64,000 nucleotides of DNA from Candidatus Latescibacterota bacterium (GCA_965223905.1 CBDCXV010000011.1:2112001-2176000), one strand, 5' to 3'; numbered from the stretch's first letter, positions 5,712 through 23,190 are shown. A program made the numbers and translations. The notes: generated by a model from the sequence alone, not told the origin.

Positions 5712-7204
5712 CCTCCCCGGCCCGGAACGGCGAAGCGCTCCTCGACCTGCGCGGGATCGGCAAGCGCTTCCCCGGGGTGCAGGCCCTGGCGGAGGTCGAC
5801 TTCGATCTGCGCCGGGGGGAGGTTCACTCCATCGTCGGCGAGAACGGGGCGGGCAAATCGACGCTGATCAAGATCCTCACCGGGGTGCACCAGCCGGACG
5901 CAGGCTCGTATGCCATCGACGGCCGCCCGGCCGCCGCGGACAGTCCGCGAGCGGCGATCGCCGCCGGGATCAGCGTCGTCTACCAGGAGCCGAAGCTGGT
6001 GCCCACCCTGTCGGTGGCGGAGAACATCTTCTTCGGCCGGCTCCCTTCGCGCCGGGGGCGGGTCGCCTGGCGGCGCCTGCACGAAGAGGCGGCCGCGGCC
6101 CTCGACCAGGTCGGCCTGAGGCTCGACCCGCGGCGGCAGGTCCGGCACCTCGGCATCGGCGAGCAGCAGCTCGTCGAGGTGGCGCAGGCGCTGACGCAGT
6201 CGGCCCGGGTCCTCATTCTCGACGAACCCACCTCCGCCCTCAGCCCGCGCGAGATCGAGCGGCTGTTCGCGCTGATCCGGCGGCTGAAGCAGGAGGGGGT
6301 GGCGATCGTGTACGTGTCGCACAAGCTCGAGGAGATCCTCGCGCTCTCCGACCGGGTCAGCGTGCTGCGGGACGGCAGACTGGTGCGCACCGCCCCGGTG
6401 GAGGAGCTCGACGGCGAACGGCTGATCTCCCTCATGGTGGGACGGCCGCTCGAATCCGAGGGGGCGCCCGCGCCGGCCGGCAGCGGCGTGGTCGCCCTCG
6501 AGGTGCGGAACCTGTCGACCGCCCGGGTGCGGGACGTCAGCTTCCGCGCGCACCGAGGGGAGATCGTCGGCTTCTCCGGGCTGATGGGGGCCGGCCGCAC
6601 CGAGCTCGCCCGCGCCGTCCTGGGTGCCGACCGGCGCCACCAGGGGGAGATCGAGGTAGTCGGGCACCGGCTGCTCCCCGACTCGACCGCGGCGGCCCGG
6701 CGCCTGGGGGTCGGACTGGTCCCCGAGGACCGCCGCGGCGGAGGGCTCTTCCCGGAGCAGCCGGTGCTGCACAACATGACCGTCGCCGCTCTCGACCGCT
6801 TCTGCAGCCGCGGAGTCATCAGCCCGTCCCGGGAGCGGGCCGCGGCCGCGGCCTTCGTCGAGGAGCTGTCGATCCGCACCCCTTCGCTGCGGCAGCGGAT
6901 CGCCGTGCTCAGCGGCGGCAACCAGCAGAAGGTCCTGGTGGCGCGCTGGCTGCTCAAGCAGAACCTCGAGGTGCTGTTCGTCGACGAGCCGACCCGGGGC
7001 ATCGACGTCCGCGCCCGCTTCGCCATCTACCGCCTGCTGCGGGAAATGGCGAACCGGGGACTGGCGGTGATCGTCATCTCCTCGGAGATCCCCGAGCTGC
7101 TGCGGCTGTGCAACCGCATCTACGTGATGAAGGGGGGATGCATTGTCGGTGAGCTTCCCGGGGCCGGCACCACCCCGGAGGAGTTGCTGGCGAGGGCCAT
7201 ATGA
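5708..7204 (+). CDS. Sugar ABC transporter ATP-binding protein (RbsA-like, two ABC domains)
   Basis: GENGAGKSTL, LDEPT, LSGGNQQKV, DEPTRGID; GTG start overlaps the permease stop. Confidence 0.95.
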   Translation: MTSPARNGEALLDLRGIGKRFPGVQALAEVDFDLRRGEVHSIVGENGAGKSTLIKILTGVHQPDAGSYAIDGRPAAADSPRAAIAAGISVVYQEPKLVPTLSVAENIFFGRLPSRRGRVAWRRLHEEAAAALDQVGLRLDPRRQVRHLGIGEQQLVEVAQALTQSARVLILDEPTSALSPREIERLFALIRRLKQEGVAIVYVSHKLEEILALSDRVSVLRDGRLVRTAPVEELDGERLISLMVGRPLESEGAPAPAGSGVVALEVRNLSTARVRDVSFRAHRGEIVGFSGLMGAGRTELARAVLGADRRHQGEIEVVGHRLLPDSTAAARRLGVGLVPEDRRGGGLFPEQPVLHNMTVAALDRFCSRGVISPSRERAAAAAFVEELSIRTPSLRQRIAVLSGGNQQKVLVARWLLKQNLEVLFVDEPTRGIDVRARFAIYRLLREMANRGLAVIVISSEIPELLRLCNRIYVMKGGCIVGELPGAGTTPEELLARAI

Positions 7205-7247
7205 AGATCCGCGGGGGGACCAAAAAGGCGGTGGAAGGAGGTATTCC

Positions 7248-8453
7248 GTGAATCGATTCCTGCATGAGGCAGCTTCGTACGGAGGGTTCTGTCTGGTTGC
7301 GGCGGTAGCCCTCCTCGTCAAGGGTCAACCTGTCGATGCAACACCAGAGAGCAGGGCCACGGCACTGTTCCTGCTGATCTCGCCTTCCGTGCGCGTCAAC
7401 GGGATGGGGCAGGCGGGAGTCGCTCTCGCGGACGAGCCGGCGAGTTACTACAACCCCGCGGCCGCTGCTCTCTCCTCTCCTGCGCACAGCTTCCAGGGCC
7501 GCTTCTACCTGCGCGAGATGCCGTGGCTTCCGCGTTGGCCCGACGACAAGACCTACAGCCACCGGGCCGCCCAGATCGCGGGAGGGCGGGTGTTCGACAG
7601 CCTGTCCTGGCGGGGGCCGACCAGGCTTCGAGCGGCCTTCTACGGATACCGCACGAAGGTGGATTTGGGACGATCACTACGGCACAATGAAAGAGGCGAG
7701 GTGATCGGTTCTTTCACCTTTGCAGAGGCATCCGAAAACGTCGGCGTCAGCTTGGCGTTGAGGTCCGTTGTGGAGGTAGGAATCGGTGCGGTCTCAAAGC
7801 GCATCTCATCCAGGCTGGGCGATGCAAAAGGAGCTGCCGATGCCTACGACTTCGGTCTCATGGCGGTAGTACCGATGACCGGGGCGCTCAAGCGCCTCTC
7901 CGGGCGGGAGCTTGCACTGAATCGCCACTTGCGGGTGCAACTCGACATCGGATTCGGCGTCTCCTGGCAGAATCGCGGCGAAAGAATGGACTACACCGAT
8001 GCGATGCATGCGGATCCTCTGCCGGCGAACAGGCGGCACGGATGGTCCGCCGTCCTGGCAATCGACCGGAACTCCGAATCCCTCGGTCTTCCTTTGGGGA
8101 GAATGACGTTCTCCAGGGAGACGTACCGTCCCCAGGTGGAGGGCACCCAGGTAACGAGTCGTGCCGAGGACGACAAGTGGGGAGTCGAGATCTCGTTTCT
8201 GGAGACGATCTCTGTGCGGCGGGGGAAGCACGACGATTTCGATGGTGAGGTTCACCTGAAGACTTCGGGGGGAACCATCCAGTCCGACGGTCTCTTCAGG
8301 TACATGGCACACCACCTGGAAAGCAGACCGCCCGGCTCCAGGCGGGATGGGCTTCTTTTCCTCCTCAGGCGCCTGTCGATAAGCTGGTCCTGGTTCGAGT
8401 ACGACCCGGACTGGCCGGCCCAAGGCCACTCCTATCTCGGCCTGTCCTTCTGA
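7248..8453 (+). CDS. PorV/PorQ-family outer-membrane beta-barrel protein
   Basis: Signal peptide followed by the family-typical FLLISPSVRVNGMGQAGVALAD...YYNPA; C-terminal YLGLSF barrel signature. Confidence 0.75.
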   Translation: MNRFLHEAASYGGFCLVAAVALLVKGQPVDATPESRATALFLLISPSVRVNGMGQAGVALADEPASYYNPAAAALSSPAHSFQGRFYLREMPWLPRWPDDKTYSHRAAQIAGGRVFDSLSWRGPTRLRAAFYGYRTKVDLGRSLRHNERGEVIGSFTFAEASENVGVSLALRSVVEVGIGAVSKRISSRLGDAKGAADAYDFGLMAVVPMTGALKRLSGRELALNRHLRVQLDIGFGVSWQNRGERMDYTDAMHADPLPANRRHGWSAVLAIDRNSESLGLPLGRMTFSRETYRPQVEGTQVTSRAEDDKWGVEISFLETISVRRGKHDDFDGEVHLKTSGGTIQSDGLFRYMAHHLESRPPGSRRDGLLFLLRRLSISWSWFEYDPDWPAQGHSYLGLSF

Positions 8454-8500
8454 CCTGCGAATTCCTGCATCTGCGAGTGCTCAGTACGCGGTTCCACTTG

Positions 8501-11134
8501 TTATCCGCCCAGGTATACAGCCTTCCGCACCGCTTCCAGCCGCTCCCCAAGGTATAGAGCGATGAAGTAGACCCCGGCCCCTCTTCCCCGGGGATTCCAG
8601 GTGAAGTGGCTGATGCCGTTGGCCAGGACTTCATCCGCCAGTATCTCCTCCATCTGGCCTATGGCGTTGTATACTTTGATTGTAGCGGGCGTCCTATCCG
8701 CCAGGTCGAGCTCGAGCCGAACCGTGGAGACAAATGGATTGGGAATCGCCCCTGACAGGGTAAAGCGCACAAAATCGTTGGTTCCGCGAGGTTCGTACGC
8801 GCTGTTTACCCGGCCCGGAGTTCCCCCCGGGGAGATGGAAGCCAGCCAATTCATGGTTCGGAATTATCCAGCTCATAGTGGCGCAATTCCAGCGTGGGAC
8901 CGTCGCCGTCCGCCTCCTCCGGCCACGGACTCCTATCTCCATAGACGATGGAGTCGACCTGTAATCCATGGCGGTCGAACAGGCGAACAAGCTCTCCGCT
9001 GTTCCTCAATCCGAAATCGAAGTCTCCGATGCATGTGGTTCCCGAGAACCATTCCAGGGCCTTGCCATCCTGGCACAACACGAGAAATCCGCGCGGCTCG
9101 ACAAGCGTCCCTTCGGGCAACACGAAGGAATGCCGAATATTCCCGTCCTGAAAATTCCAACTTGAAAGATCGGCGAAAAAATCATTGGGATTGTATAATT
9201 CGACCCAATCTCCCGTATCCAGTTCATCCGCCGAGTGATAATTTATCTCGTTAATTACAATCGCTGGCGAAGTCACGTCTACAGGGCTGTAGGTTTCGTT
9301 GACCCGGGCAGCCATTTCCGTCAGTGCCGGGGTCAGCAATTTCATCGTGTCACCAGGGGCAATTTCGAAAAAGATATTTCCAATTACAGGAGAGTCGGGA
9401 AACAGGCCGCTGGCGGCGTCCCTGTTGGAAGAAAGTATCAAGCTTTCACCTGCGGCAATTTTCGTCTCGGGTGGAAAAATGAAACGGTTGAAGTATTCCC
9501 CGGATTCGAAACCGCAGTAGGACAGGTCCAATTGCAACTCACCGGTATTGATTATTTCAATGAAATACCCATCCCGTACCCTGTAAACGTCTCCAATCCG
9601 CAGCCGTCTGTACTCCTCGATACCGGCGTGATTCACATTCAAGGCGTACGTCTTCGTCGCCTTGTAATTTTATGTAGAATAACCCGTTTTGAGGGTAGCT
9701 GTAGTCTCCGGATCTGAAAGCATAGGGGACGAGTCCAGTGTAGTTTTTCGGTAGCACGAGGCGGTTGCCGTACACGAGGTCCCCGGCCTGTAGATCATCG
9801 TGTTTTCCGTCGTCGAACAGGAAGAGTTTCTTGACTGTGATTTCTTCTCCCCAGGTCTCGAAGGAGGATAGATCTGGAATATATTCGACCACTACCGACT
9901 GGGGTTGGGGCGAAGTAGCCCGAAATACCACCCCCCGATCGTCGGCCTCAGGGGAGGGAAACGGATTTGAGCAGTACAAGTTCGATAGGGGACTCTTTTC
10001 GAAAAAGGAAAAATCCGTCAGGAACGATCTCCTCGCGGCCAAGAAGCCTTTTAAACGGGAGATCTCATTGTCGAATTCGGAGGTTGTGCCAATCTTGGCT
10101 TTGTCCAGGTACACGTCCGACCTGATCAACTCGTAAGTTGAGTCGATCTGAGCCTCTACGGCGCGGAACCCCTGGTCGATGACGATTCCGACCTTTTTCC
10201 AGAACGACTCGCGCCAAGTTTCGTATTCCATCAACCTCTGAAATAGGAGGTGGTATCGAAAATGGGAGTGCTGAAAGACAGTCTCAAGCTCCGCACGGTA
10301 TTCCCCGGACCAGTGATTCCCGAAAGAAGCATCGTGATCCCAGGGCATTACTTGCTCCAGGCGCCCACGCGGGTCGAAATAGAGCAAGGTATTCTTCGTC
10401 ACTGCGTCCATATTGGAGATGGCATATGTGACTGCGTAGTATCGAAGGACACTCTCTACATTGACAATGGAGGGAATTTTCTCTTCAAAGTCCTCGTGCG
10501 TCAGATATAGGAGCTGATTGAACAGGCGCTGCAAATCGGTGTAGTTGGATTCATCCCCTGCCTTCTTGTTCCAGGAAGAAAGGTAGTTATCGTACTCCAG
10601 CAACGGCGCTGTACTGCCTCCGTGATCCTCGGATTTGTAGAGACTTCCGAGCTCATACTCGTAGCGACTCAGGAAGTCTTTGTTCGGCTCCTCTACCTGG
10701 ACAAAGACGCCCATAAAGTCGTCGTTGACGATCAGACTGACGTGGTTGGTATTCGGGGCCGGATGGCCGAGGAATTGAAACAGCTTCATGGTCAGGACGT
10801 TGCGCATCAATGAAAGATCAGTGTATTCCGCATTAAGATTGACCTCTCTTGCTCCGATGGGATTTGAGCGATCCTCAAACCAGATTTTCCAACTTTTCTT
10901 TCGGTACTCACGGGCCGTGGCACCACGGAATCGAACTTGGCACTCTCGAGACTGTCCGGCGAAGGTGAATCGGGCGGGATAGCGGACGTCGCTGCGTGGT
11001 GCCTTATAAAGTGAACTCAGGTCGTCGGGATCGACGGTCAGGCGATATGCAGGCAGTTCGAGCCGTTGATCCTGGGCCTGCAGGAAGGGTGCATGAATAA
11101 CCACCAGGAAAAAAACGGGAGCCAGCGACCTCAT
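8501..11134 (-). pseudogene. Secreted CotH-kinase + lamin-tail domains + C-terminal sorting tail, split by two single-base frameshifts
   Basis: Signal peptide; CotH motifs RFRGATAR..KKSWKI, NLNAEYTD.SLMRN, MPWDHDASFG; LTD INEINY..DWVELYN; tail PNPF...KAVYLGG; indels at an A-run (~9668) and a C-run (~8855) rejoin ORFs 9557-11215, 8851-9642 and 8501-8854. Confidence 0.85.
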
Positions 11135-11335
11135 TTCCAGAAAACCTTTACAGAGGATCCGAAGGGCGACCCGGACCGCCCCTGCCGTCCCGGCGAAGGG
11201 CGCCAAGTCCTGCACGCAAGTCGCTGCGACGCGCTGGGCCTCCCCGTCCTCCGAAAGGCCGGTGATCGATCAAGGCCTGAGAGATGGCCGTGCAGGGGAA
11301 ACAGGCCGGCAAAGGGAAGGGAATCGGTAGAGGCC

Positions 11336-12106
11336 TCACACTGCGATGTCGTTTCGGCTACCGAGGCGCTCGAGACAGTGGTCGATCACGTAGCGGTATT
11401 TCGAGTATCCGCGCTGGACCAGGGAGAACCGCTTGATGAGGTCCAGCGCCCAGAAGGGCACCAGGGATTCGGTCTTGATCTCCATAACGACGGGGGACTC
11501 CGCCCACTGCGCGGTGACCGCGTCGTCGTAGTAGCTCATCTCCTCATCATGGCCCGACAGGTCGTACGAGCCGCGCATCAGCCGGTAGCGCATACCGCGG
11601 TCGAACGTAATGCGTCCGTACGCGTCCACGTCGCTGACGAAGGGCTCCCGGTGGTAGCGGAGATGGAGCACGGGCGCGGTGCCGTACAGATGATGGACAT
11701 CGACGAAGGACCGCGGCAGGGCCTCGTACGTCGGCGAGGTGCGTTCGCTCCTGGCGATTTCGAGCACCCCGGGCCACTCCGCTGCGGCGATTCGGTCGCG
11801 GACCTTCCAGACGGTGCGGTTGTGGCGGTACTTGACCTCGAGGGTGACATACTCGACCGCGCCGGTGCCGTAAAAACGGATTCTCGGTTTGAACCGCAGC
11901 AGCTGACGCAGCCTGGTGTCGTGGTAGAAGCGCAACCCGGGAGTATCCATGTACACGCTGTTGACCGTGTAGCTTCCCTGCTCCGTGGGGACGTTGGCGT
12001 CGATGGAAAACAGCGGTTGAATGAAATCGCGGATTTCGGCGGCCTGCGGCTCGGTCACCGTGTACTTCAACTCGTAGCGGTGGACCGCGGGCAGCTCAAC
12101 CGCCAT
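11336..12106 (-). CDS. VTC-domain (polyphosphate polymerase-like, CYTH/TTM fold) protein
   Basis: RYELKY, YTVNSVYMDT, KPRIRFY, LEVK, YHREPF, RITFD, VMEIK, YSKY motifs. Confidence 0.88.
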   Translation of the reverse strand: MAVELPAVHRYELKYTVTEPQAAEIRDFIQPLFSIDANVPTEQGSYTVNSVYMDTPGLRFYHDTRLRQLLRFKPRIRFYGTGAVEYVTLEVKYRHNRTVWKVRDRIAAAEWPGVLEIARSERTSPTYEALPRSFVDVHHLYGTAPVLHLRYHREPFVSDVDAYGRITFDRGMRYRLMRGSYDLSGHDEEMSYYDDAVTAQWAESPVVMEIKTESLVPFWALDLIKRFSLVQRGYSKYRYVIDHCLERLGSRNDIAV

Positions 12107-13409
12107 CGTGGGCCTCCTCCTCCTGCAGGACCCCCGGACCCTCGATGCCCAGCTCGTAGAAAAGGAAATAGAGCGCGTGCGCCAGATCGCGCTGGCTCTC
12201 GGCGATTGCGACCCGCGCATCCATGATCGTGCGCTCGAGCTCCAGGATCTCGTCAGCCGGCACGGTAGGGTAGGCCCGGGTCTCGGCGATCACCTGCGAC
12301 GAGCCCTGGATGATGGCCTCGCCCTCCCGGAGAGTCAGGTCGCGGGCGAGCAATGCCTCCGTGTAGTCGGAGAGCGTTTCGCGGACCTCCTCGGCGATGC
12401 GCTCGCGAACGGAGAGGACCTCGAGCGCGCTTCCCGACACCGCAAGGGAAACGCCGGCCAGGTTGCCCGCATTGCGGTTGAAGAGGGGGAGCTCGAGGCC
12501 GAAGACCAGCTCATGCCAGTCTTCTTCGGACCGCTCGAAGTGTCGCGAAACCTCCAGGAAGGACAACTGCGGCAGCAGTCGCCAGCTCTCGAGGTTTCGC
12601 CTTTCGAGGGCGAGTTGTCGCTGCTCCTCGGCCAACCGAAGCTCCGGGCGGTTGGCGTAGGCGAGGACGAGGAGTCGCTCTTCATTCAAGGCGACTTCGG
12701 GAAGCGGCTCCGAAAGCACCCGGGTCTGCGTGGAGATACCGGTGAGTCGTCGCAACCTGCGCTCTTCCTCCCGCAGTGCGTGCAAGCTGCGAAGGTGACC
12801 CTGGCGCGCCTCGGCAACGACCGTTTTTGCCTTGGTGAAGTAGACGATCGACCTCCGGCCGAGGGCCATCATGGTCTCGATCTGGGAGATCCGCAGGTGC
12901 TCATTCTCAACCCGCCGGGCGGCGATGCGGGCCAGTTCGGCATGCATGGCGATATCGGCGCAGGACCGGCGCACTCGCGAAGCCAGCCAATGCCGCTCCC
13001 TCACCGCCTCCACCTTGCGCTCCCACAAGGCTACCTGCTTCCGCTGCCGTCGCGCTCCCACCTCACCGAGGGAAGGAGGACGCCAGCGGATGCCGATCTC
13101 GAGTTCGTCGAACCGGGCCCTCCCGCGCCGAGAGGCCAGGTTGCGGACGCGCAGCTCCGGATTGTCGATCCAGTCGAGCGAGCGAATCCGGTGGGTGCGA
13201 ACGTCCGTCTCCGTTTCGAACGCACGCAGCCGCGGGTTGTTGTCCAAACCCACCGCCACCGTTTCTTCAATCGTCAGGGGCACCCCGCCCTTGTTGCCGG
13301 CGTTGTGAACGCCCGGGGCTTCGCCCGGGAGATCGGCCGAGGCTGCCGTCGAACCGGGGATCGCAACGAAAGGGGCCAGCACCACGAGAAACCGGCCGCC
13401 TGCTCTCAT
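12096..13409 (-). CDS. TolC-family outer-membrane efflux protein
   Basis: Signal peptide, LTIEETVAVGLDNNPRL, RPEL..AE, LPQL, LELPLFNRNAG; long helical repeats; stop overlaps the VTC gene start. Confidence 0.82.
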   Translation of the reverse strand: MRAGGRFLVVLAPFVAIPGSTAASADLPGEAPGVHNAGNKGGVPLTIEETVAVGLDNNPRLRAFETETDVRTHRIRSLDWIDNPELRVRNLASRRGRARFDELEIGIRWRPPSLGEVGARRQRKQVALWERKVEAVRERHWLASRVRRSCADIAMHAELARIAARRVENEHLRISQIETMMALGRRSIVYFTKAKTVVAEARQGHLRSLHALREEERRLRRLTGISTQTRVLSEPLPEVALNEERLLVLAYANRPELRLAEEQRQLALERRNLESWRLLPQLSFLEVSRHFERSEEDWHELVFGLELPLFNRNAGNLAGVSLAVSGSALEVLSVRERIAEEVRETLSDYTEALLARDLTLREGEAIIQGSSQVIAETRAYPTVPADEILELERTIMDARVAIAESQRDLAHALYFLFYELGIEGPGVLQEEEAHDGG

Positions 13410-14497
13410 CGCCCCGGTCTCCCGATTTCCGGATCGCTCTCTTCCGCGAAGGCGCCCCACGGTGCGGACGGGCGATCGGCAAGGCGTACGCGTACGGACT
13501 CGCCGGGCAGCAGGAGGTGGCCCGGCTCGAGGAGGACACGGGCCCTTCTGGCCCACAACATCTGCCCGCGCAGCCACAGCCTCTCGGGCATCGGTGAGTA
13601 CCCAGGATGCACGAAGTCGATCCTCCCCCTGGCGTCGAACTCGCTCGACCGCCTCGACATCACTTCCACCTCCTGTCCGACATCGAACTGCAGGTCCTCC
13701 GTCTCCGGGACGTACACTTCAACCGCGGAGGCGTCGGCGCTCCCCACGGAAACAATGGGCACGAAAGCATCGACCGTACTTCCCTGCAAGGCCAGGATCT
13801 CGGAGACCGATCCCGCACACGGCGACCTGACCGTCCGGTACTCGATGCGCTGATCGATCAGGGCGAGGGACTGCCGGACCTCGTGCTGGCGCTGCACGCG
13901 GTCGCCGAGAAGCGAAATCATGATGCTGTCGCCATAGGCACCCGAATCGCCGGCGCCAAGCTTGAGCACGTCGGGCCGAATCAGCGCCGACTGTCCGGCT
14001 ACCGACTGCGCCAGGGCATCGCGGCGGATGGTCATGCGGGTGAGATCGCGGTCGTGTCCCAGGCCGGCTTTCTCCGCTGCCACAAGCGCGGCGATTTCCC
14101 GGCCGAGGGCCTCGAGCTCGGCCTCCTCCGCCTGGACTGCCGCGTACTGCTCGGACACGCGCAGCCGCAACAGGTCGTACTCGACGCTGTATCGACGCCG
14201 GTCTGCAGATACTATCGACTCCAGGGCGGCCAGCTCTTCTTGACGCAGTCGCTTTTCCGCCAACAGGTCGGAGGCGTCCAGGCGAGCCAGGACCTGGCCG
14301 GCCACGACGCTTTCCCCCACTGCGGTACTCACCTCCTGGATGGTACCTCCCTCGCGAGCGCCCACCGAGCGCACCGTCGATACCACCGTGCCGATCAGAT
14401 ACGGGTCGGCACGCCACTCCCGATAGCCGGTGGCCGCGGCAAGCACGCCCGCCACCCACAGGGCACGGAAAGAGTTCCTCCTCAGCCAGCGCTTCAT
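13406..14497 (-). CDS. HlyD-family periplasmic adaptor (membrane fusion protein)
   Basis: N-terminal TM, lipoyl-like halves (GESVVAGQVLARLD; VRSPCAGSV), coiled-coil hairpin, LLPGESVRV. Confidence 0.85.
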   Translation of the reverse strand: MKRWLRRNSFRALWVAGVLAAATGYREWRADPYLIGTVVSTVRSVGAREGGTIQEVSTAVGESVVAGQVLARLDASDLLAEKRLRQEELAALESIVSADRRRYSVEYDLLRLRVSEQYAAVQAEEAELEALGREIAALVAAEKAGLGHDRDLTRMTIRRDALAQSVAGQSALIRPDVLKLGAGDSGAYGDSIMISLLGDRVQRQHEVRQSLALIDQRIEYRTVRSPCAGSVSEILALQGSTVDAFVPIVSVGSADASAVEVYVPETEDLQFDVGQEVEVMSRRSSEFDARGRIDFVHPGYSPMPERLWLRGQMLWARRARVLLEPGHLLLPGESVRVRLADRPSAPWGAFAEESDPEIGRPGR

Positions 14498-14500
14498 CCA

Positions 14501-15181
14501 CTACACCTCTACGGCAGAGGAGTGGTTCATGAAGGTCAGCCCGCGTATGCCTTCGATCTGTCCGAGAACCTCGATCAGCCGCGTCGAGTCCGCTTCGTCG
14601 GCGAGTTTCACCTGGTAGGTGCAGTCGACGAGATCGCCCTGGGCGACGTCCCGCATGGTGACCAGGGCGAACGTTCTCGGTACCTCTTGCAGTATCCGGG
14701 CCACCTGGGCGGCAAAGGTCGGCCCCGCCGGTATCTGGAAGCGCACGAGTCCATCGAATTTCATCCGCGTGCCGAACAGCGACGCGTGCATGACTACCGC
14801 GATCGTACAGAACAGGGCGGTTGCGAAGGTGGCGGCGAGGTAGCTCTGAACGCCGCAGGCTACCCCGGCACCAAGAGCAGCGAAGAGGAACACCAGATCG
14901 CGCGGATCGCGCAGGTTGGTGCGAAAACGGATGATGGCCAGCGACCCCACGATACCGATGCCCCGGGCGACGTTGTCGCCGATCGCAATCATCAGCAGAC
15001 AGGTGATGATGCTGCCGAGAACCATGGTCTGCATCAAACCGCGAGACCAGGACAGGCCCTGGAACGTCCACTCGTACACCATTGCGATTATGCTCGAAAG
15101 GCAAAAGGCGAATACCAGAGAGAGCAGAACCTGGTTCCAGTGGAGTTTGATCGTTCCGAAATCGAGCAACAGACTATCCAT
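14501..15181 (-). CDS. DUF4956-like membrane protein
   Basis: Several TM helices, IGDNVARGIGIVGSLAIIRFRTNLRDPRD motif, ACT-like C-terminus; usual neighbour of VTC-domain genes. Confidence 0.85.
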   Translation of the reverse strand: MDSLLLDFGTIKLHWNQVLLSLVFAFCLSSIIAMVYEWTFQGLSWSRGLMQTMVLGSIITCLLMIAIGDNVARGIGIVGSLAIIRFRTNLRDPRDLVFLFAALGAGVACGVQSYLAATFATALFCTIAVVMHASLFGTRMKFDGLVRFQIPAGPTFAAQVARILQEVPRTFALVTMRDVAQGDLVDCTYQVKLADEADSTRLIEVLGQIEGIRGLTFMNHSSAVEV

Positions 15182-15409
15182 CAGACACTGACTCCCGAGT
15201 AACCTTCAAAAGGCGGGGTAGAGGAAGGGGCAAGCCTTTCCGAACATACTGTAAACATTACAAATACACCACCAAGTCAACGGTGCGTCAACCCCGGTTC
15301 CAGTTGAAACGGATCACAGACAAGGGTGAATGCCAGCCGTCATGGCGACCTGTTTGATGCCAAGCTGCCCATTGTCGGATTACCGCGAAGGGAGATATCG
15401 GTTGCCCTG

Positions 15410-15751
15410 CTACATTCCCACTCCCGGGCGTGACCGTCGTAGCGTGTTCCGATCTGTCCGGAGCCTTGCCAGCCATCCCTGAACCACAGGCACGCCGGGT
15501 CGTTCTTCCGCATGGTTCGTCAGAACCATGCGCGCCGTTGTCTCCCGGGACGAGGGAACCGGGGTGGGCTCGGATATGCGTGGAACACCCCAAAATTTGC
15601 TGGGCGGGAGCCAATAGGCAACCACAAAGCCCGTGGCGGAAGTCACCAGGAGCGGAACTCCCACGACGCCGGTCAGAAAACGACCTCCGGGAAAACGGGA
15701 AGCCTCCAATTGCCGGCCCACCCGATCCGACGCCCGGACCACCTCTATCAC
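15410..15751 (-). pseudogene. Possible degenerate PepSY-associated TM-helix protein fragment
   Basis: GVVGVPLLVTSATGFVVAY resembles the PepSY-TM first helix; no clean start. Confidence 0.25.
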
Positions 15752-15999
15752 CAGTGGACAGTGCCCTCGATTCGAGACCCGGCCCGGTGTTCCAGCACCG
15801 GGTGGAGCACACCCCCCAATGTTGCACGAACCCGGTTACTTCCATTAGATAACTCATCTAGATAACGCATCAAGTAGAAAACCCAGCGAGGGCGCCCGGA
15901 CGAATGAAAGCTCACCCCCATTCCACGACATGGATAAGAATGAGACCGACCATCAATTCGTTGGGGCCTCAAGCCGGGAAAGCATGCCGAAGTAAATAC

Positions 16000-17490
16000 A
16001 TGGCGGTAATCGCATGTTTATGCCTGGCAGGCTTCAATTGTTGCACTGACGGAAGCCTTTCCCCGCCCGGGGAGGCGGGGTCTTCCATAGAAATCATTTC
16101 CCCGGAAAGGACCACCCTTGACAGCTACTTTCCTATCATAATCCGGGCTCTTGACAGGGAGGGAGGGACCGATACGAATGTGAACATGGAGACCCCGGTG
16201 ACGGCGGGAAACACCGTAGAGTCCATTACCCTGAAAAAAGGGATGGGATCGGCTTTGATCATCTCCCAGGATGCCCCGGGGGGAGCCCTTTTCCTGGAAA
16301 CGACGAGCGGTTCAAGAGTCGTCTCCCTGGTGGATTCGTTCCCCGTAGAAGAATACTCGGGACAACTGAAGCCGGGATTGCACACATGGGACAGGTCAAA
16401 AGACCGTTACGTCGCCGGGGAGTTGGTAGTGCCAACCGGGACAACCCTGGTTATTGAGGAAGGAACCCGGATCCTCCTGGGAAGCGGAGCGGACGTTGTT
16501 GTTCACGGCAGGATCCAGGCGAAAGGAACATTGGAACGGCCGATCGTCTACATGTCCAGCCAATGGAAGCATCCTTGGGGGGGAATTGAAGTAGTGGAAG
16601 GACGAGCCGAATTCACCCATAGCTTTTTTGTCAATGGAGGGGCGAATCGAAAAAAGGTTTTCGGCCATTCCAACAGCCAGGCGGTGGTAATGGCCAGAAG
16701 GGCCGACGTGCGCTTGACCGCCTGTTATTTTCTCGATAATCCTGGCAAGGCCCTGGGAGGTTGGGAGAGTCATTTGACTATCGACCGGTGCCTGATATCA
16801 CGTTGCGACACCGGAGGAGAATTCGAAAGCAGTGTCGCCCTGATTTCGAATACACACGTAATAGACATTCCCAACGGAGACGGCGTTTTCGTCGATGATG
16901 ACAACGATGGATTCTATTTCAATTCGGTCTATCCGCAAGCAGAAACGCCCTCGCTGGTCAGAGACTCGTTTGTTATAACGGGCAAGGACGACGCCATAGA
17001 TCACAATGGGGCGCTCCTGGAGATCCGCAATTGCTGGCTGGAAGGATTCGCGCATGAAGGGGTAGCGGCGTCAAACGACAATTGGGTGCAGATATTCAAC
17101 ACCGTGATCAGGGGATGCGAGCAGGGAATAGAGGCCGGGTACGGACGACCACGAGTCCTGGTCGACCACTGCGTCGTGGTGGAAAATGGGGTGGGCCTGC
17201 GATTCGGGGATTCGTACGATTGGGGGTCGGAGGGACACATGATCGTGTCAAATTCCATTATTTTCAACAACAAGGACAACATCCTGAATCATGACCTGAA
17301 GACCGGGAAGGCAGTCCAGGGGGCCATTGTCGTCGACCATAGCCTCGTTGCGGATTCCGAACTAGATTCTTCGGCCACCGTCTGGGGCGCAGTACCCCTG
17401 TTCGACGAGAACTACCGCCTGCTGCCTTCCTCCCCGGGGATAGGTCGGGCCGTCGATGGCTCGGACATAGGATTGGTTGATCTGGATTAG
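16000..17490 (+). CDS. Exported right-handed parallel beta-helix repeat protein
   Basis: Hydrophobic N-terminus with Cys; GTLERPIVY..WGGI; repeated D-G-I-D/E-G-I-E coils (DDNDGFYF, KDDAIDHN); start approximate. Confidence 0.7.
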   Translation: MAVIACLCLAGFNCCTDGSLSPPGEAGSSIEIISPERTTLDSYFPIIIRALDREGGTDTNVNMETPVTAGNTVESITLKKGMGSALIISQDAPGGALFLETTSGSRVVSLVDSFPVEEYSGQLKPGLHTWDRSKDRYVAGELVVPTGTTLVIEEGTRILLGSGADVVVHGRIQAKGTLERPIVYMSSQWKHPWGGIEVVEGRAEFTHSFFVNGGANRKKVFGHSNSQAVVMARRADVRLTACYFLDNPGKALGGWESHLTIDRCLISRCDTGGEFESSVALISNTHVIDIPNGDGVFVDDDNDGFYFNSVYPQAETPSLVRDSFVITGKDDAIDHNGALLEIRNCWLEGFAHEGVAASNDNWVQIFNTVIRGCEQGIEAGYGRPRVLVDHCVVVENGVGLRFGDSYDWGSEGHMIVSNSIIFNNKDNILNHDLKTGKAVQGAIVVDHSLVADSELDSSATVWGAVPLFDENYRLLPSSPGIGRAVDGSDIGLVDLD

Positions 17491-18347
17491 GAATCCCGTG
17501 ATTTCCCTTGGGAAACTGGCACTTGCCAGGGATTTACGCAATTGGGCCGGCGCCCATGCAGTTATCTCCGCGCGCTTGGCCATAGCTCTGCTTTTCATGG
17601 GGATCAACCAAGCCCGGTCGGAAAGTGCGAGTGGGATTGCTGAATATTACATCACCTGTGATCCGGACAGCTTTGAATATATCTATGAGAACTACAAACG
17701 AGACCACTATATATCGGTCCACGTTACCCATGGAGAGGAGACATGGCACGACGCCGGGATGCGAATCCGCGGGGACAGCTCGCGGGAACTGGAGAAGAAA
17801 TCCCTCAAGATATGGTTTCCCACGACACCCTTCCTTGACGGCAAGGAGAAATTGAATTTCAACGCTGAGTTTCTGGATAAAAGCTATTTGCGCACGGTCC
17901 TTGCCAGCCGACTGTTCAGGGATACCGGACATCCCGGGTTTCTTGCGGAGTATGCGCGGATTTTCCTCAACGATAAATTCTTCGGCCTTTATGTCCGGGT
18001 AGAAAACATGGACAAGGATTTTTTGAGGCGGAACGATCTGAACACGGATGGAAATCTGTACAAGGCCTATCTTGATGGAGCCTCATTGACAATGGCTGAC
18101 GACATCTCTATCCGTTGGGAGAAAAAAACCAACGATGATGAGGATCGAAGCGATTTGCGAAACCTGATCTTTCTGCTCAACCAAGTTCCCGACATCGAGT
18201 TCCTGAACTTCGCCCGCGGTTATTTTAACTACGACAGAATGATCAATTCCATAACTCTCAATATGCTCTTGGCGAATGGCAGTACCTACTACCACAACTA
18301 CTACATGTTCCACGACATCGGGGGGGATGGGAAATGGTCCATGTTTC

Positions 18348-19811
18348 GGGTCTATCCGGGTTTTTCAACGCCGAAACGTAAGTACGGAAAGTACCTGAGC
18401 CCTTGCTGTCCATCTGAGTACATGACAAGGCCATAGGTCGTTCCCTATGCTTGGTGTATCCCCATCAAGCACTCCCCAAGAAAGGGAAGGGAAGGCGACC
18501 TATGACCGCTATGAAGTTCGTCTCCAAGCTGTTCCAATTCAAGGGATTTCGCGCGGTGGGCGTGTGGTTCGAAGGACACGGGGAAGAAGCGGCCGTCGTG
18601 GTCGCGGTGAAGCCCCAAAGGAACGGGTGCCGGTGTCCCGAGTGTGGGCGCCGCGGCAAGATCGTACAGGTCATGGAGTTCCGCCGCTGGCGCGACGTCC
18701 GCGTTTGCGGCCGTACCCTCTGGTTGCACCACGCCCCTCGGGAGATCCGCTGCCCGACCCACGGCCGTCGCGTCGAGGAGGTGCCCTGGGCGGCGCCCTC
18801 GGCCCAGGTCAGCTACCGCTTCGAATACCTGCTGCTGAGGTACTGCCAGTGGATGACGCAGGCCGCCGCCGCGCGCCTGCTGGGTCTGGCCCCGTCGACC
18901 CTGTCCGACCAGCTGCACCGGCTCATCGAGCGCCGGCGTACGGGGCACCGCATCCGCCGGCTGAAGACCCTCGGCATCGACGAGATCTCCTACGCCAAGG
19001 GCCATAAATACGCTACCCTGGTCTACGACCTGGAACGCTCCCGTGTCGTCTGGGTCGGCAAGGGCAAGGCACGGAAGACCATCGACGCGTTTTTCCGGGA
19101 CCATCTCAGCGCCTTCCAGAAGGACCGCATCCGCTGGGCCTGCTGCGACCTGAGCGAGACCTTCATCGGCGCCATCCGGCAGCATGGTCCCAACGCCGAG
19201 TTGGTCCTGGACCGATTCCACGTCGTCAAGGCCCTCAACGAAGCCGTCGACGAGGTGCGCAAGGAGCAGTGGCGGCAAGCCTGTGGCGAGGACCGCAAGC
19301 TGCTCAAGGGCCTGCGCTGGGTGCTGCTGCATCACTCCGCCCAGCGCTCGCGAAAGGATCGGCGCACGCTCCAAACCCTGGAGAAGGCCAACCGCCGCAT
19401 CTACCGCGCCTGGCGCCTGAAGGACGAGTTCGAGCACTTCTGGCGCTACAAGGCGCGCTGGGCCGCCGAACGCTTCCTCAAGAAGTGGACGACGGCGGCC
19501 CTGCGCAGCCGCCTGCAGCCCCTGCGCAAGTTCGTCAACACGGTGCGCAAGCAGGCGGCCGGCATCACCGCCTTCGTCGACACGCACCTGACCAACGCCG
19601 CCGCCGAAGGGCTCAATCGCATTATCCGCATGGTCAAGAATCGAGCCAGTGGATTTAAAACTCTGGATGCCTTTGCCGACCTGATTTACCTGTGCGTCGG
19701 AGACCTCGATATCCCTGCGCAGATTCCGGCCCGATTCCGTACAGTATGAAACCCTAAAAATCTCATTGGGGAAACGCTATAAATACCACGTTGAAAAACC
19801 CGTATATAGCC
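18348..19811 (+). mobile_element. ISL3-family insertion sequence, copy 1 (1464 bp)
   Basis: 23-bp imperfect terminal IRs (GGGTCTATCCGGGTTTTTCAACG / GGCTATATACGGGTTTTTCAACG); 8-bp TSD CATGTTTC at 18340-18347 and 19812-19819. Confidence 0.96.
18502..19749 (+). CDS. ISL3-family transposase
   Basis: Zn finger CPECG, LGIDE...KGHKYAT, DRFHVVK, TNAAAEGLN. Confidence 0.96.
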   Translation: MTAMKFVSKLFQFKGFRAVGVWFEGHGEEAAVVVAVKPQRNGCRCPECGRRGKIVQVMEFRRWRDVRVCGRTLWLHHAPREIRCPTHGRRVEEVPWAAPSAQVSYRFEYLLLRYCQWMTQAAAARLLGLAPSTLSDQLHRLIERRRTGHRIRRLKTLGIDEISYAKGHKYATLVYDLERSRVVWVGKGKARKTIDAFFRDHLSAFQKDRIRWACCDLSETFIGAIRQHGPNAELVLDRFHVVKALNEAVDEVRKEQWRQACGEDRKLLKGLRWVLLHHSAQRSRKDRRTLQTLEKANRRIYRAWRLKDEFEHFWRYKARWAAERFLKKWTTAALRSRLQPLRKFVNTVRKQAAGITAFVDTHLTNAAAEGLNRIIRMVKNRASGFKTLDAFADLIYLCVGDLDIPAQIPARFRTV

Positions 19812-21558
19812 CATGTTTCCCTGGGATACCGACAAAACCTTCAGTAAGTACGGTATAGACTATCCCTATCATCGCAGTTACCAGCCCCCCAGGCATCCGG
19901 GGCGTTGGGACAATCCGTTTCTTGAACGGGCCCTTCAGAACGACACCATATTTGCAGACATCCAGGACCGCGTCAGGGAATTGAGTCTGACCCACTTCGA
20001 TCCGGAATATCTTTTCGCGCTGATAGACAGCCTTCAGGCGCTACTGGCCCCGAGTGTCGCACTTGACAGGACGGACGATGTTGCAGACCTGGCACAGTGG
20101 AGGAGGCAGATAAATTCCGAGCGCGGCTACATACAGTCGCGCGCTTCCCGCCTCCAGGAGCAATTCGAGAAATGGCCTTCCCCTTTCCAGACCCTGGGAC
20201 TGCGTTGGATCGAGGAAACTCCCTGGTTGGTCTGGCAAACCTCGGACAAATCCACCACCTACACCCTGAAGTACGGCAAGGAGCGCACGCTCCCCGAGGA
20301 CGGAACCCGGACAATTGAAGGCTTGACCGACACCGCTTACGCCCTTCAGTCGGACCTACCCTCCGGGAAGTATTTCTGGAATGTAGAAGCCTTCAACAGC
20401 TACGGGTCCTTCGAGGCTTTCGACAGCAAAGCCACTTTCGTTTTTACGAAACACCTGAGGGAGAGAACACCCGAAACCGACGATGTCGTAATTATCAACG
20501 AATTGAACTATCGCTCCGCCGATGATTTCGACGCTGGTGACTGGATAGAGTTGTACAACCCTCAGAATCGGACAATCGATGTTTCCGGGTGGTATCTCAA
20601 GGATAACCGGGACGACCATACTTTCTTTATCCCCAATTCCACCTATATCGGCAGAAATACCTATCTCGTTTTGTGCCAAAACAGGGACGATTTTCTGGCT
20701 CTATTCCCCAAGATCCGTACCTGCGCTGGAGACTGGGATTTTGGGCTGGATCGCGCCTCCGAATCAGTCAGGGTCTTTGATTCCAACGGGACGTTGGTCG
20801 ATTTCGTTGCTTACCGAAACGAACTTCCCTGGCCTGTCGAGGCTGACGGGACAGGCTCAACTCTTCAGCTTATCAAGGCTGAATCGGACAATCGGTCGGC
20901 AGCAAACTGGGGGGCATCCTCCCGGCACGGGTCTCCGGGGGAGGCCAATGATCCAATCCGTCTCCCAGCAGGGGAAGCCATGAGCAGTTACCCGAATCCC
21001 TTTAATGAGGCCACCACCATTTCTTTTTTCCTTTTTGAAGGAGCCCTGTGTTCCTTGACTATTTTCGACATTCGAGGGGCCCAGATCATCAAGTTGTTGG
21101 ACGAATGGAGACCCTCGGGTTTTCACCAAGTGATCTGGGATGGGAACAATCAAAAAAACAATCGTGTAGCAAGCGGCGTGTACATTGCTCACCTGAAAGG
21201 TCCTGAGGGAATTGGCGAGGCCCAAAAGATTGTCCTGCTCAGGTAGTCCGCTGAGCAACATGTAGGGTGCTTGTGTTTCACAGAAAAAAGCCTGGCTTCC
21301 TTACCTGCGAGTTCGCGGGGCTGGGAGAGTTTCGCACCTGTTTCAGTTTGCAGAGTGCAGCTGAAAATGGGAGAACGCCTCCGGCTACCGAGTACCACCG
21401 GGACGCGAAAGGGTTAAACCTCGAACGCTGATACAGCCCTTTCGTGAGGGGCACTTCAGGATGCTGGTGCATCCGTGCCGGCAGGTGCCACGGTTCTCAA
21501 AAATGGTATGGCTTGAGTTCTGCGTGTATGCACTGCTGGGGGTAGCGGTGCTGATTGA

Positions 21559-21635
21559 TGGTGGGCGATGCCGGGCTCGAACCAGCGACCCCCTGCTTGT
21601 AAGGCAGGTGCTCTGACCAACTGAGCTAATCGCCC
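21559..21635 (-). tRNA. tRNA-Val (anticodon TAC)
   Basis: Reverse complement GGGCGATTAGCTCAGTTGGTCAGAGCACCTGCC-TTACAA-GCAGGGGGTCGCTGGTTCGAGCCCGGCATCGCCCACCA; cloverleaf with encoded CCA. Confidence 0.97.
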
Positions 21636-21736
21636 CCGGCAGAAGAAGGTAGCGGCTCATCCCGAGGGGGGCAAAGGTCCGCCCGCAGAGCTCTCCCTCC
21701 TCCGTCCGCCCCTGGCAACCTCCCGGCGGGTGAAAA

Positions 21737-21766
21737 TTGACCGTCCCCAACCCGCCGGGTTATATT
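21737..21766 (+). promoter_or_regulatory. Candidate sigma70 promoter for the tyrS leader
   Basis: TTGACC (21737-21742), 18-bp spacer, TATATT (21761-21766). Confidence 0.5.
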
Positions 21767-21802
21767 CGGCTATCCTGTTAATCAAAATTGGCAACTGATT
21801 GC

Positions 21803-21844
21803 ATGACACGACGCGTTCACAGCGAGTATCGCTATACCCCCTGA
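21803..21844 (+). CDS. Candidate tyrS leader peptide MTRRVHSEYRYTP
   Basis: 13-codon ORF with two TAT Tyr codons near its end, upstream of a terminator and tyrS. Confidence 0.6.
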   Translation: MTRRVHSEYRYTP

Positions 21845-21877
21845 AGGGGCTAGCGCCGCGTTGCGTCCAGCGTGTTC

Positions 21878-21912
21878 GAGCCCCCGATAACGCTTCGGGG
21901 GGCTTTTTCTTT
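21878..21912 (+). terminator. Intrinsic terminator/attenuator in the tyrS leader
   Basis: GAGCCCCCGA-loop-TCGGGGGGCTT stem followed by a T-rich tract, about 30 nt before the tyrS ATG. Confidence 0.75.
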
Positions 21913-21942
21913 GTACGCCAACCAACGGCATCCAGGCGGCTT

Positions 21943-23190
21943 ATGAACATTCTCGATGATCTTCAGAACCGGGGGCTCGTCTACCAGGTCACCGACGGCC
22001 TCGAAGAGCGGCTGCGGCAGTCCGCGCCGCTGACCGTGTACGCCGGCTTCGATCCGACGGCCGACAGCCTCCAGATCGGCAACCTCGTCACCGCGCTGCT
22101 GCTGCGGCGTTTCCAGCAAGCCGGACACGTGCCGATCGCCCTGGTCGGCGGCGGCACCGGTCTCATAGGGGATCCGGGCGGCAGGTCGGAGGAGCGCGCC
22201 CTCAATCCCGCCGAAACCGTGGCGGCGTGGGCGGAGAAGATCAGGGCCCAGCTCGAGCCCTACCTCGACTTCAATTCGCGCACAAACCCCGCGATCCTCG
22301 TCAACAACTACGACTGGCTCGGAAAGGTCGGGGCCATCGACCTGATGCGGGACGTCGGCAAGCACTTCCCGGTCCCCTACATGCTCGCCAAGGACTCGGT
22401 CGCCTCCCGTCTCGAGGTGGGGATCTCCTACACCGAGTTCAGCTACATGGTGCTGCAGGCCTTCGACTTCCTCGAGCTGAACGAGCGCTACGGCTGCGAG
22501 GCGCAGCTCGGCGGCAGCGACCAGTGGGGGAACATCACCGCCGGGGTCGACCTGATCCGGCGCTCCGCGGGGCGCCGGGCCTACGGCCTCACCAACCCCC
22601 TGGTCACCAAGGCGGACGGCAGCAAGTTCGGCAAGACCGAGGGCAATACCGTATGGCTCGACGGCTCCCTCACCTCGCCCTACGAGTTCTACCAGTTCTG
22701 GATCAACGCCGACGACGCCAGCGCCCTGAACTACCTGAAGGTCTTCACCTTTCTCGGGGGGGACGAGATCGAGGCGCTCGCGCAGGCGACCGCGGAGAAC
22801 CCGGGCCGGCGGGAAGCCCAGCGCGTGCTGGCCCGGGAGGTGACGGCGCTGGCGCACGGGCCCGACGCGGCCGCCAAGGCCGGGAAGATCTCCACGGCCC
22901 TGTTCTACGGGGATCTCGGCGAGCTCGAGGAGGACGAAATCGAGCTGGGGTTTCACGACGTCCCGACCTACCGGATGAGCGAGCCGGAGCTCGGGCTCGT
23001 CGATCTCCTGGTCGCGGCCGGGATCTCGCCGTCGAAACGGCAGGCGCGCCAGGACATCGGCAGCGGCGCCATCTACGTCAACGGCGAGCGCTGCACCGAG
23101 CTCGACCGCCTCATGCGCACCCGCGACGGCCTGCACGGGAAATACCTCGTCCTGCGCCGCGGCAAGAGCAAGTACTTCCTGATCAGATAA
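21943..23190 (+). CDS. tyrS: Tyrosine--tRNA ligase
   Basis: YAGFDPTADSLQIGN, QLGGSDQWGNI, KFGKT, C-terminal S4 domain (LRRGKSKY). Confidence 0.97.
   Translation: MNILDDLQNRGLVYQVTDGLEERLRQSAPLTVYAGFDPTADSLQIGNLVTALLLRRFQQAGHVPIALVGGGTGLIGDPGGRSEERALNPAETVAAWAEKIRAQLEPYLDFNSRTNPAILVNNYDWLGKVGAIDLMRDVGKHFPVPYMLAKDSVASRLEVGISYTEFSYMVLQAFDFLELNERYGCEAQLGGSDQWGNITAGVDLIRRSAGRRAYGLTNPLVTKADGSKFGKTEGNTVWLDGSLTSPYEFYQFWINADDASALNYLKVFTFLGGDEIEALAQATAENPGRREAQRVLAREVTALAHGPDAAAKAGKISTALFYGDLGELEEDEIELGFHDVPTYRMSEPELGLVDLLVAAGISPSKRQARQDIGSGAIYVNGERCTELDRLMRTRDGLHGKYLVLRRGKSKYFLIR

Follow-up and report, generated by a model that had tools for sequence, protein, structure and literature searches.

What is the function of an operon that joins a tunnel enzyme of the VTC family and a membrane protein of the DUF4956 family to an HlyD-family periplasmic adaptor and a TolC-family outer-membrane channel, and that contains no pump? 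This question is raised by a stretch of 64,000 nucleotides (nt) from Candidatus Latescibacterota bacterium (GCA_965223905.1 CBDCXV010000011.1:2112001-2176000), which is referred to here, at its full length, as the window. An earlier note, made from this sequence, proposed that the operon synthesizes polyphosphate and exports it, the VTC and DUF4956 proteins taking the place of the pump, and that the polymer could serve as phosphoryl donor for the CotH-type kinases encoded nearby. Judged from gene context only, polyphosphate synthesis coupled to export is also the reading that we consider best, as a tentative choice which may well be wrong.

The four genes, whose coordinates are given in Table 1, are tightly coupled in the order DUF4956-HlyD-TolC-VTC, as that note had described: a gap of 3 nt separates DUF4956 from HlyD, HlyD and TolC overlap by 4 nt (ATGA), and 5 nt lie between TolC and VTC, spacings that depend on the gene starts chosen. 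Every domain call of the note was upheld by Pfam, which likewise found no ATP-binding cassette (ABC) or resistance-nodulation-division (RND) pump in the operon. Probably the products of these four coupled genes form a single assembly that spans the envelope.

The tunnel enzyme, the membrane protein and the duct

The VTC protein scores 100.2 bits against PF09359, where the gathering cut-off is 23, and covers positions 2-228 of the 235 in the profile; in a profile search of the Protein Data Bank (PDB) its first match was Vtc4 (3g3q, E 5.6e-12). The AlphaFold model of the protein (pLDDT 85.1) leads to the same family. In fact, the top 12 Foldseek matches are all chains of Vtc4, Vtc3 or Vtc2 (E 5.6e-13 to 4.1e-11), the nearest being Vtc4 chains (E 5.6e-13, TMq 0.66-0.71), while the cyclase and triphosphatase tunnel enzymes of the CYTH type match at E 9.2e-8 or worse.

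Nine residues, K14, R75, R77, K92, Y151, R153, E209, S235 and K236, are invariant in all of the 27 VTC homologues that were aligned before the survey described below, and in the 3g3q profile alignment they correspond respectively to K200, R264, R266, K281, Y359, R361, E426, S457 and K458 of Vtc4. According to a cryo-electron microscopy study, these nine Vtc4 residues are needed for synthesis, and K458 is the sole one that the inactive subunits Vtc2 and Vtc3 have replaced, with I or L in its place (bioRxiv 10.1101/2023.01.27.525886). From its residues and its fold, the window protein is predicted to be an enzyme of the active Vtc4 type and not of the CYTH cyclase or triphosphatase type, which the earlier note had named as the possibility that would speak against its own proposal. 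The only domain that Pfam recognizes in its 256 amino acids (aa) is VTC; an SPX domain is absent.

Polyphosphate in bacteria is commonly thought to be made by the polyphosphate kinases PPK1 and PPK2 and to be retained in the cytoplasm. One match to PPK1 and two to PPK2 are also present in the genome, so that the VTC protein would come in addition to ordinary polyphosphate metabolism.

The AlphaFold model of the DUF4956 protein (pLDDT 78.4) shows five helices, which span residues 15-133, and a beta-alpha-beta domain formed by residues 143-219. Residues ~137-226 match ACT domains with Z up to 11.3, and the C-terminal domain also matches the C-terminal domains of MgtC proteins, namely 7qa5 (Z 9.1, root-mean-square deviation 3.4, 89 aligned residues) and 2lqj (Z 8.5). 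Against the MgtC profile PF02308 the protein stays below the gathering cut-off, with 18.3 bits where 31.4 are required; two relatives score 23.5 and 24.1 bits. The family is uniform in length (225-232 aa) and carries an invariant block, IIRFRTNLRDPRD; among 36 sequences R85, F86, R87 and D95 are invariant and R73 and R94 nearly so. By the positive-inside rule this block and the ACT-like domain would be cytoplasmic, on the same side as the VTC protein, and we propose that DUF4956 forms the inner-membrane conduit.

Two more proteins that contain only the membrane part of DUF4956 are encoded elsewhere in this genome (L004, G000:C11:65351-68629; L003, G000:C9:809725-813009). One of these genes adjoins a gene for a phytase-like beta-propeller, and the other adjoins pieces of an RND pump and a gene for a solute-binding protein.

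The adaptor is recognized by HlyD_D23 (44.6 bits) and HlyD_3 (39.4 bits), both above their cut-offs. It falls below the cut-off of every curated adaptor subfamily in NCBIfam, the best of these sub-threshold matches being an RND efflux adaptor. The channel matches OEP in two stretches with 50.6 bits, against a cut-off of 22, and its N-terminus resembles a signal peptide. Many phyla have a longer adaptor of about 690 aa, compared with 363 in the window (for example L031:6558-8645, L061:6578-8650 and about 30 other loci). The additional C-terminal part of about 330 aa, which the window adaptor does not have, matches DUF6929/DUF6910 at or near the cut-offs.

These same components could be read as an efflux system for another substrate, with DUF4956 transporting a cation or a small molecule and the VTC protein serving as an energizer or regulator that hydrolyzes nucleoside triphosphates or triphosphate. 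The likeness of DUF4956 to MgtC, below the Pfam cut-off and in the ACT-like C-terminal domain, points in this direction, as do the sub-threshold match of the adaptor to an RND subfamily, the DUF4956-type gene that lies beside RND pump pieces in this genome, and the fact that many tunnel enzymes are triphosphatases, which are the weaker fold matches here. We nevertheless regard efflux as unlikely, because all nine polymerase residues of Vtc4 are invariant, including the equivalent of K458 that is missing from Vtc2 and Vtc3, and the fold is five orders of magnitude nearer to Vtc4 than to triphosphatases and cyclases. Moreover, we know of no tunnel enzyme that powers a transporter.

Conservation of the four-gene unit and the proposed mechanism

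Is the four-gene order a peculiarity of this genome? The survey considered one genome per species; out of 456 VTC relatives confirmed by tblastn the best 80 were kept, which gave 78 loci, and genes were called by running iterative profiles built from the window proteins over all open reading frames (ORFs) of the loci. Gene order could be judged in 61 of the 78, and in each of these 61 an HlyD gene lies beside VTC. The order DUF4956-HlyD-TolC-VTC is found in 45/78 loci. Nine more have a gene of about 400 aa, unnamed, at the place of TolC (DUF4956-HlyD-unnamed gene-VTC), which gives a weak OEP match in one locus and no Pfam match in two; four have VTC-DUF4956-HlyD, and three are rearranged (one truncation by an insertion sequence, one locus with two modules, one insertion of a gene with lamin-tail domains, LTD). 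The remaining loci are cut by contig ends, 11 of them with HlyD or TolC still visible and six without information.

According to the record titles, the loci belong to Latescibacterota, Gemmatimonadota, Myxococcota, Calditrichota, KSB1 and Neomarinimicrobiota, and further to Ignavibacteria, Cytophagia, Fibrobacteres, Bdellovibrio and Gammaproteobacteria; the four-gene unit is thus present in at least 10 phyla, mostly uncultured lineages of sediment and soil. With an order so conserved, the four genes are not adjacent by chance. In 43 of the 78 loci the available DNA includes CotH or LTD genes. Downstream, the gene met most often codes for a protein of about 680 aa that combines three LTD domains with a type IX sorting tail; apart from such genes, the flanks are unrelated between loci.

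Two of the surveyed loci deserve separate mention. A contig labelled as an uncultured Bifidobacterium metagenome-assembled genome (MAG), with 64% GC (L086, CAZKRC010000009.1), carries DUF4956, an adaptor of 625 aa, the unnamed gene and VTC; its bin label may be wrong, since one would not expect an envelope adaptor in a genus with a single membrane. In another locus (L038:1222-4708) genes for polysaccharide export, of the Wzz/GNVR and Poly_export/SLBB families, are found directly upstream of the module, on the opposite strand, an arrangement that recalls the link to Pel operons in Gram-positive bacteria discussed at the end.

A pump encoded next to the operon could have escaped a view restricted to the four genes. 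By Pfam, ABC_tran, ACR_tran and MFS_1 are all absent from 94 flanking ORFs (12 loci and part of a thirteenth), which are the first part of the 282 flanking ORFs of 32 loci and the set in which the major facilitator superfamily (MFS) was examined; a single MacB_PCD/FtsX gene is present among them, away from the module. When phmmer seeds were run against all ORFs of the 80 loci, three ABC, three RND and two FtsX matches were obtained, none of them inside an operon. One of the ABC matches is the window's own sugar-type ATPase, which is the nearest ABC ATPase to the module and lies at 4811-7204, outside the block of lower G+C content. A pump of the ABC, RND or FtsX kind is therefore not conserved near these loci, in agreement with what the earlier note had supposed.

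Under the reading that we favour, the cytoplasmic VTC protein would polymerize polyphosphate from ATP as a tunnel enzyme of the Vtc4 type, as its residues and modelled fold suggest. The chain would be passed to an oligomer of DUF4956, whose R73, R85, R87 and R94, together with the ACT-like domain, would face the cytoplasm, and the adaptor and the TolC-like channel would then conduct it over the periplasm and the outer membrane. Polymerization would thereby replace an ABC, RND or MFS pump. CotH, LTD and beta-helix proteins with type IX sorting tails, which are frequent neighbours, may act upon the exported polymer or together with it; that polyphosphate is the phosphoryl donor of CotH is pure speculation. 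A bolder version, in which many double-membraned bacteria secrete polyphosphate through a dedicated machine with polymerization as the motor and the polymer feeds phosphorylation or scaffolding outside the cell by CotH, LTD and beta-helix proteins, is improbable; if it were true, polyphosphate would be a currency of energy and phosphoryl groups outside the cell, where ATP is absent.

Several observations weigh against export. The survey was limited to the 80 relatives closest to the query among the 456. Within the phylum, 36 genomes out of the 151 sampled contain VTC, and among 12 of these loci picked by hand from long contigs only four have the four-gene form; the other eight (L100-L105, L107 and L111) are bare VTC-DUF4956 pairs with no adjacent HlyD or TolC, belong to a second VTC subtype and lie beside CotH, beta-helix or LTD genes. 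Since the bare pairs occur in a double-membraned phylum, no dedicated duct would be required for the pair to work, and what it makes could remain inside the cell. By Pfam, DUF4956 is unrelated to the channel subunits of yeast, its sole family resemblance being to MgtC, with no DUF202. The helical part has no solved relative among the Foldseek and VIA-align matches, which cover only residues ~137-226; the fold searches barely probed this membrane part, and we make no claim on its fold. A fusion of VTC to a membrane part was not found at E <=1e-5 among 1948 candidate longer proteins, which is a weak negative. Finally, to our knowledge there is no precedent for a TolC tunnel that conducts a long polyanion.

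The duct consequently belongs to one clade. The linkage of HlyD and TolC to VTC, on which the earlier note had relied, holds within this clade and is not universal, and its interpretation is on the whole partly supported: the linkage, the absence of a pump and the type of enzyme stand, while the universality of the duct does not.

The bare pairs also bear on the idea that the product is delivered only to the periplasm or the inner membrane, with HlyD and TolC venting it or positioning it at the envelope and no long free polymer being secreted. These pairs, which retain CotH, beta-helix and LTD genes as neighbours, would agree with it, and so would the C-terminal periplasmic domain matching DUF6929/DUF6910 that is added to the long adaptors of other phyla, and the phytase-like beta-propeller gene next to another DUF4956-type gene in this genome. 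A TolC-family channel is nonetheless kept in fixed order in 45 loci, with a size-matched gene at the same place in nine more, and such a retained channel would be surprising if there were no passage across the outer membrane. We hold delivery to the periplasm to be more doubtful than efflux.

A further alternative leaves the polymer where it is made: the VTC protein would synthesize cytoplasmic polyphosphate under the regulation of an MgtC-like DUF4956, and the adaptor and channel would be separate passengers. ACT domains are usually regulatory, and one study suggests that in Streptococcus polyphosphate may stay cytoplasmic (bioRxiv 10.1101/2024.04.20.589940). This alternative is quite improbable in view of the fixed order of the four genes, with overlaps, over at least 10 phyla, and of PPK1 and PPK2, which already serve cytoplasmic polyphosphate.

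If synthesis coupled to export is true, the operon would provide a third bacterial route of polyphosphate synthesis besides PPK1 and PPK2, the first dedicated export route for an inorganic polymer, and a tripartite envelope system driven by a polymerase instead of an ABC, RND or MFS pump. In the sediment and soil lineages that carry the unit, exported polyphosphate would be relevant to phosphorus cycling, to metal binding and mineral formation, and to the matrix of biofilms.

Duplication of the module, insertion sequences and the CotH neighbours

Does the module matter to the cell that carries it? Contig C2 of this genome carries a second copy, which blastn aligns over 3903 columns with 98.5% identity, and all four ORFs are intact and of equal length in both copies. 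The copies differ by seven synonymous and no nonsynonymous changes in DUF4956, by six and two in the HlyD adaptor, by 12 and 12 in the TolC-like channel and by 12 and five in VTC, which makes 37 synonymous against 19 nonsynonymous differences for the whole module. These substitutions indicate purifying selection on both copies.

The flanks of the C2 copy differ from those in the window and include upstream an ion-channel gene and a gene for a CotH-LTD protein of 1011 aa. The upstream boundary of this copy is marked exactly by a 66-nt remnant (L015 8887-8952; G000:C2:544886-544951) of the ISL3-family insertion sequence that also interrupts CotH2 (see below), which hints that recombination mediated by the insertion sequence moved the module; contigs of the public runs X1, X5 and X6 contain a matching joint from 15223 to 18495. 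The nearest relative, the Candidatus Latescibacterota MAG OZ242214.1, likewise has two module copies (L016 and L017). These agree with each other to 99.97% over 3149 nt and differ from the window module by about 7%; an ISL3 element has cost one of them its DUF4956 gene, and there the CotH gene downstream is broken too. Because module copies are more alike within each of these two genomes than between them, either a recent duplication in each lineage or gene conversion (concerted evolution) is suggested. Contig depth is raised over the module and far higher over the insertion sequence, and was not used as a measure of copy number.

The CotH genes on the two sides of the module have fared differently from it. 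Their CotH domains give strong matches (E 3.8e-57 and 1.6e-36), but neither gene is in a full intact frame: the earlier note was right about the domains of a CotH/lamin-tail protein following VTC and of a second, divergent CotH protein, and not about the integrity of the genes. The first (CotH1) is spread over frames -3/-1/-3, and its orthologues in two other loci are single ORFs (L018, 958 aa; L020, 898 aa), so that it carries two frameshifts, near 9668 and 8854, both downstream of the kinase domain. After 8854 a further G is present in contigs of runs X3, X5 and X6, and at 9668 one base is absent from those of X3 and X5; either change would restore the frame, and the runs that show these changes come from two other studies. 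Run X1 matches the window exactly at both frameshifts and at both junctions of the insertion sequence described next, and holds 99% of the sampled words; it is probably the source sample and is not independent.

The second gene (CotH2), whose start is overlapped by 14 nt by the beta-helix gene, is interrupted inside the CotH domain by an insertion sequence of the ISL3 family, the profile breaking between positions 206 and 207. The element has inverted ends of 23 nt that are 87% complementary, and it is bounded by an 8-bp target duplication, CATGTTTC, at 18340-18347 and 19812-19819. In run X5 one contig passes from 18338 straight to 19811 and so shows an empty site with an uninterrupted CotH2. 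Thus both CotH genes have become inactive in this strain, whereas related populations have intact versions. In the genome the element has 39 matches, of which 18 are full-length at 99-100% identity, and it is expanding there; three copies lie in the window, at 18348-19811, 55329-56792 and 58008-59471, the last two of which explain a patch of low G+C at 54-58 kb. In three other loci (L031, L054 and L103) the beta-helix domain is fused to CotH-LTD.

As both CotH genes beside the module are broken, the module does not need CotH in cis, and its CotH, LTD and beta-helix neighbours are dispensable in this position. The broken genes, the 18 near-identical full-length ISL3 copies and the second module copy of OZ242214.1, cut off by the same kind of element, could also mean that the whole region is a decaying, non-functional island that is being eroded by insertion sequences in this strain. 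This is very improbable, as the four ORFs are intact in both copies with mostly synonymous differences, and full-profile CotH matches without internal stops exist elsewhere in the genome, on contigs C2, C5 and C10. The module is here an accessory element, duplicated, intact in both copies and ringed by active ISL3 elements; its duplication and its maintenance under selection, at a time when the expanding element is destroying the CotH genes beside it, speak for these four genes as the functional core.

Table 1. Features of the low-G+C part of the window, with positions counted from the first nucleotide of the window
Feature	Position	Strand	Evidence and remarks
DUF4956 membrane protein	14501-15181	-	Pfam DUF4956, E 5.8e-11; 226 aa
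HlyD-family periplasmic adaptor (membrane fusion protein)	13406-14497	-	Pfam HlyD_D23, 1.3e-11; HlyD_3, 1.1e-09; 363 aa; N-terminal membrane anchor
TolC-family outer-membrane factor	ORF 12096-13577, likely start 13409	-	Pfam OEP, 2.7e-13; 437 aa from MRAGG
VTC-domain protein	ORF 11336-12220, likely start 12106	-	Pfam VTC, 1.8e-28; 256 aa
Duplicated segment	11330-15229		blastn; counterpart on contig C2, L015:8945-12846
CotH1 (CotH, LTD, type IX secretion system tail)	8501-11215	-	three ORFs; likely signal-peptide start 11134; two frameshifts
CotH1 ORF, CotH domain	9557-11215	-	Pfam, full profile
CotH1 ORF, LTD	8851-9642	-	Pfam
CotH1 ORF, weak Por_Secre_tail	8501-8854	-	Pfam
Beta-helix protein, right-handed	15904-17490	+	Pfam Beta_helix, 2.7e-10; 528 aa; first gene of divergent unit
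CotH2, 5' part	17477-18347 (ORF to 18436)	+	Pfam CotH, positions 2-206; junction sequence
ISL3-family insertion sequence	18348-19811	+	1464 bp; transposase 18451-19749, DDE_Tnp_ISL3, 2.4e-66
CotH2, 3' part	19812-21246 (ORF from 19813)	+	CotH positions 207-320, then LTD, then type IX sorting domain
tRNA-Val(TAC)	21559-21635	-	ARAGORN, Rfam and GC profile; right edge of lower-GC block

The G+C content of the window is about 69%, and the stretch from about 8000 to 22000 is lower, at 54-66% (GC profile). Together with the tRNA-Val gene, which is the sole Rfam match in the whole window, this composition suggested a genomic island inserted at the tRNA; neither an integrase nor a convincing direct repeat was found, and an island is not claimed. 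A scan of 8300-16000 gave one promoter-like and three terminator-like sites, fewer than expected from shuffled sequence. To the left of the block an ORF of 436 aa at 7143-8453 on the plus strand has no Pfam match and ends in LSF, which is a common ending among outer-membrane barrels.

Comparison with known systems

The operon resembles tripartite pumps and type I secretion systems (AcrAB-TolC, MacAB-TolC, EmrAB-TolC and HlyBD-TolC) in that an HlyD adaptor and a TolC factor are encoded with an inner-membrane component. It differs from them in the partner, which in those systems is of the ABC, RND, MFS or FtsX kind and for which nothing equivalent is found in the operon or conserved nearby, and in the adaptor, which reaches no curated subfamily and in many phyla gains a C-terminal domain of about 330 aa. 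With the MgtC family DUF4956 shares its architecture, a weak Pfam similarity and the fold match of the C-terminal domain, whereas its score remains below the cut-off and it has an invariant motif of its own. An analogy, and no more than that, can be made with the synthase-dependent secretion of exopolysaccharides such as cellulose, alginate, Pel and poly-N-acetylglucosamine, where polymerization at the inner membrane drives the polymer through an outer-membrane exit; those proteins are unrelated, the polymer is organic, and the exit is a porin with a tetratricopeptide-repeat scaffold instead of a TolC-type duct.

The eukaryotic VTC complex (Vtc4/Vtc3/Vtc1; PDB 3g3q, 7ytj and 8i6v) has the same Pfam tunnel domain, the nine catalytic residues and the nearest fold in the PDB, and the idea of a synthesis coupled to membrane passage along basic residues would be common to both. 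Here, in contrast, there is no SPX sensor and the enzyme is a separate soluble protein of 256 aa; the three-helix subunits of the DUF202 type are replaced by a five-helix DUF4956 with an ACT-like domain; and, while the eukaryotic complex targets the vacuole, the presence of an adaptor and an outer-membrane channel would make the exterior the target.

The closest bacterial parallel in gene content comes from the Pel operons of Gram-positive bacteria. A full-text search of the literature, with the supplementary figures S4 and S5 of PMC7112168 outside its scope, found two Pel papers as the only ones to mention CotH, a VTC-type enzyme and DUF4956 together, and nothing joining a VTC-type enzyme to an adaptor or TolC, which agrees with the earlier note in its statement that no functional description was known. 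In the available parts of these two papers, the three families are linked within polysaccharide operons, without an adaptor or outer-membrane channel, and their function is not shown (PMC7112168; bioRxiv 10.1101/2024.04.20.589940). Pel genes are absent from the window ORFs examined, and here the adaptor and the channel stand between DUF4956 and VTC. As far as those sources go, a trio that lacks the duct in Gram-positive bacteria fits a duct that is needed only where there is an outer membrane.

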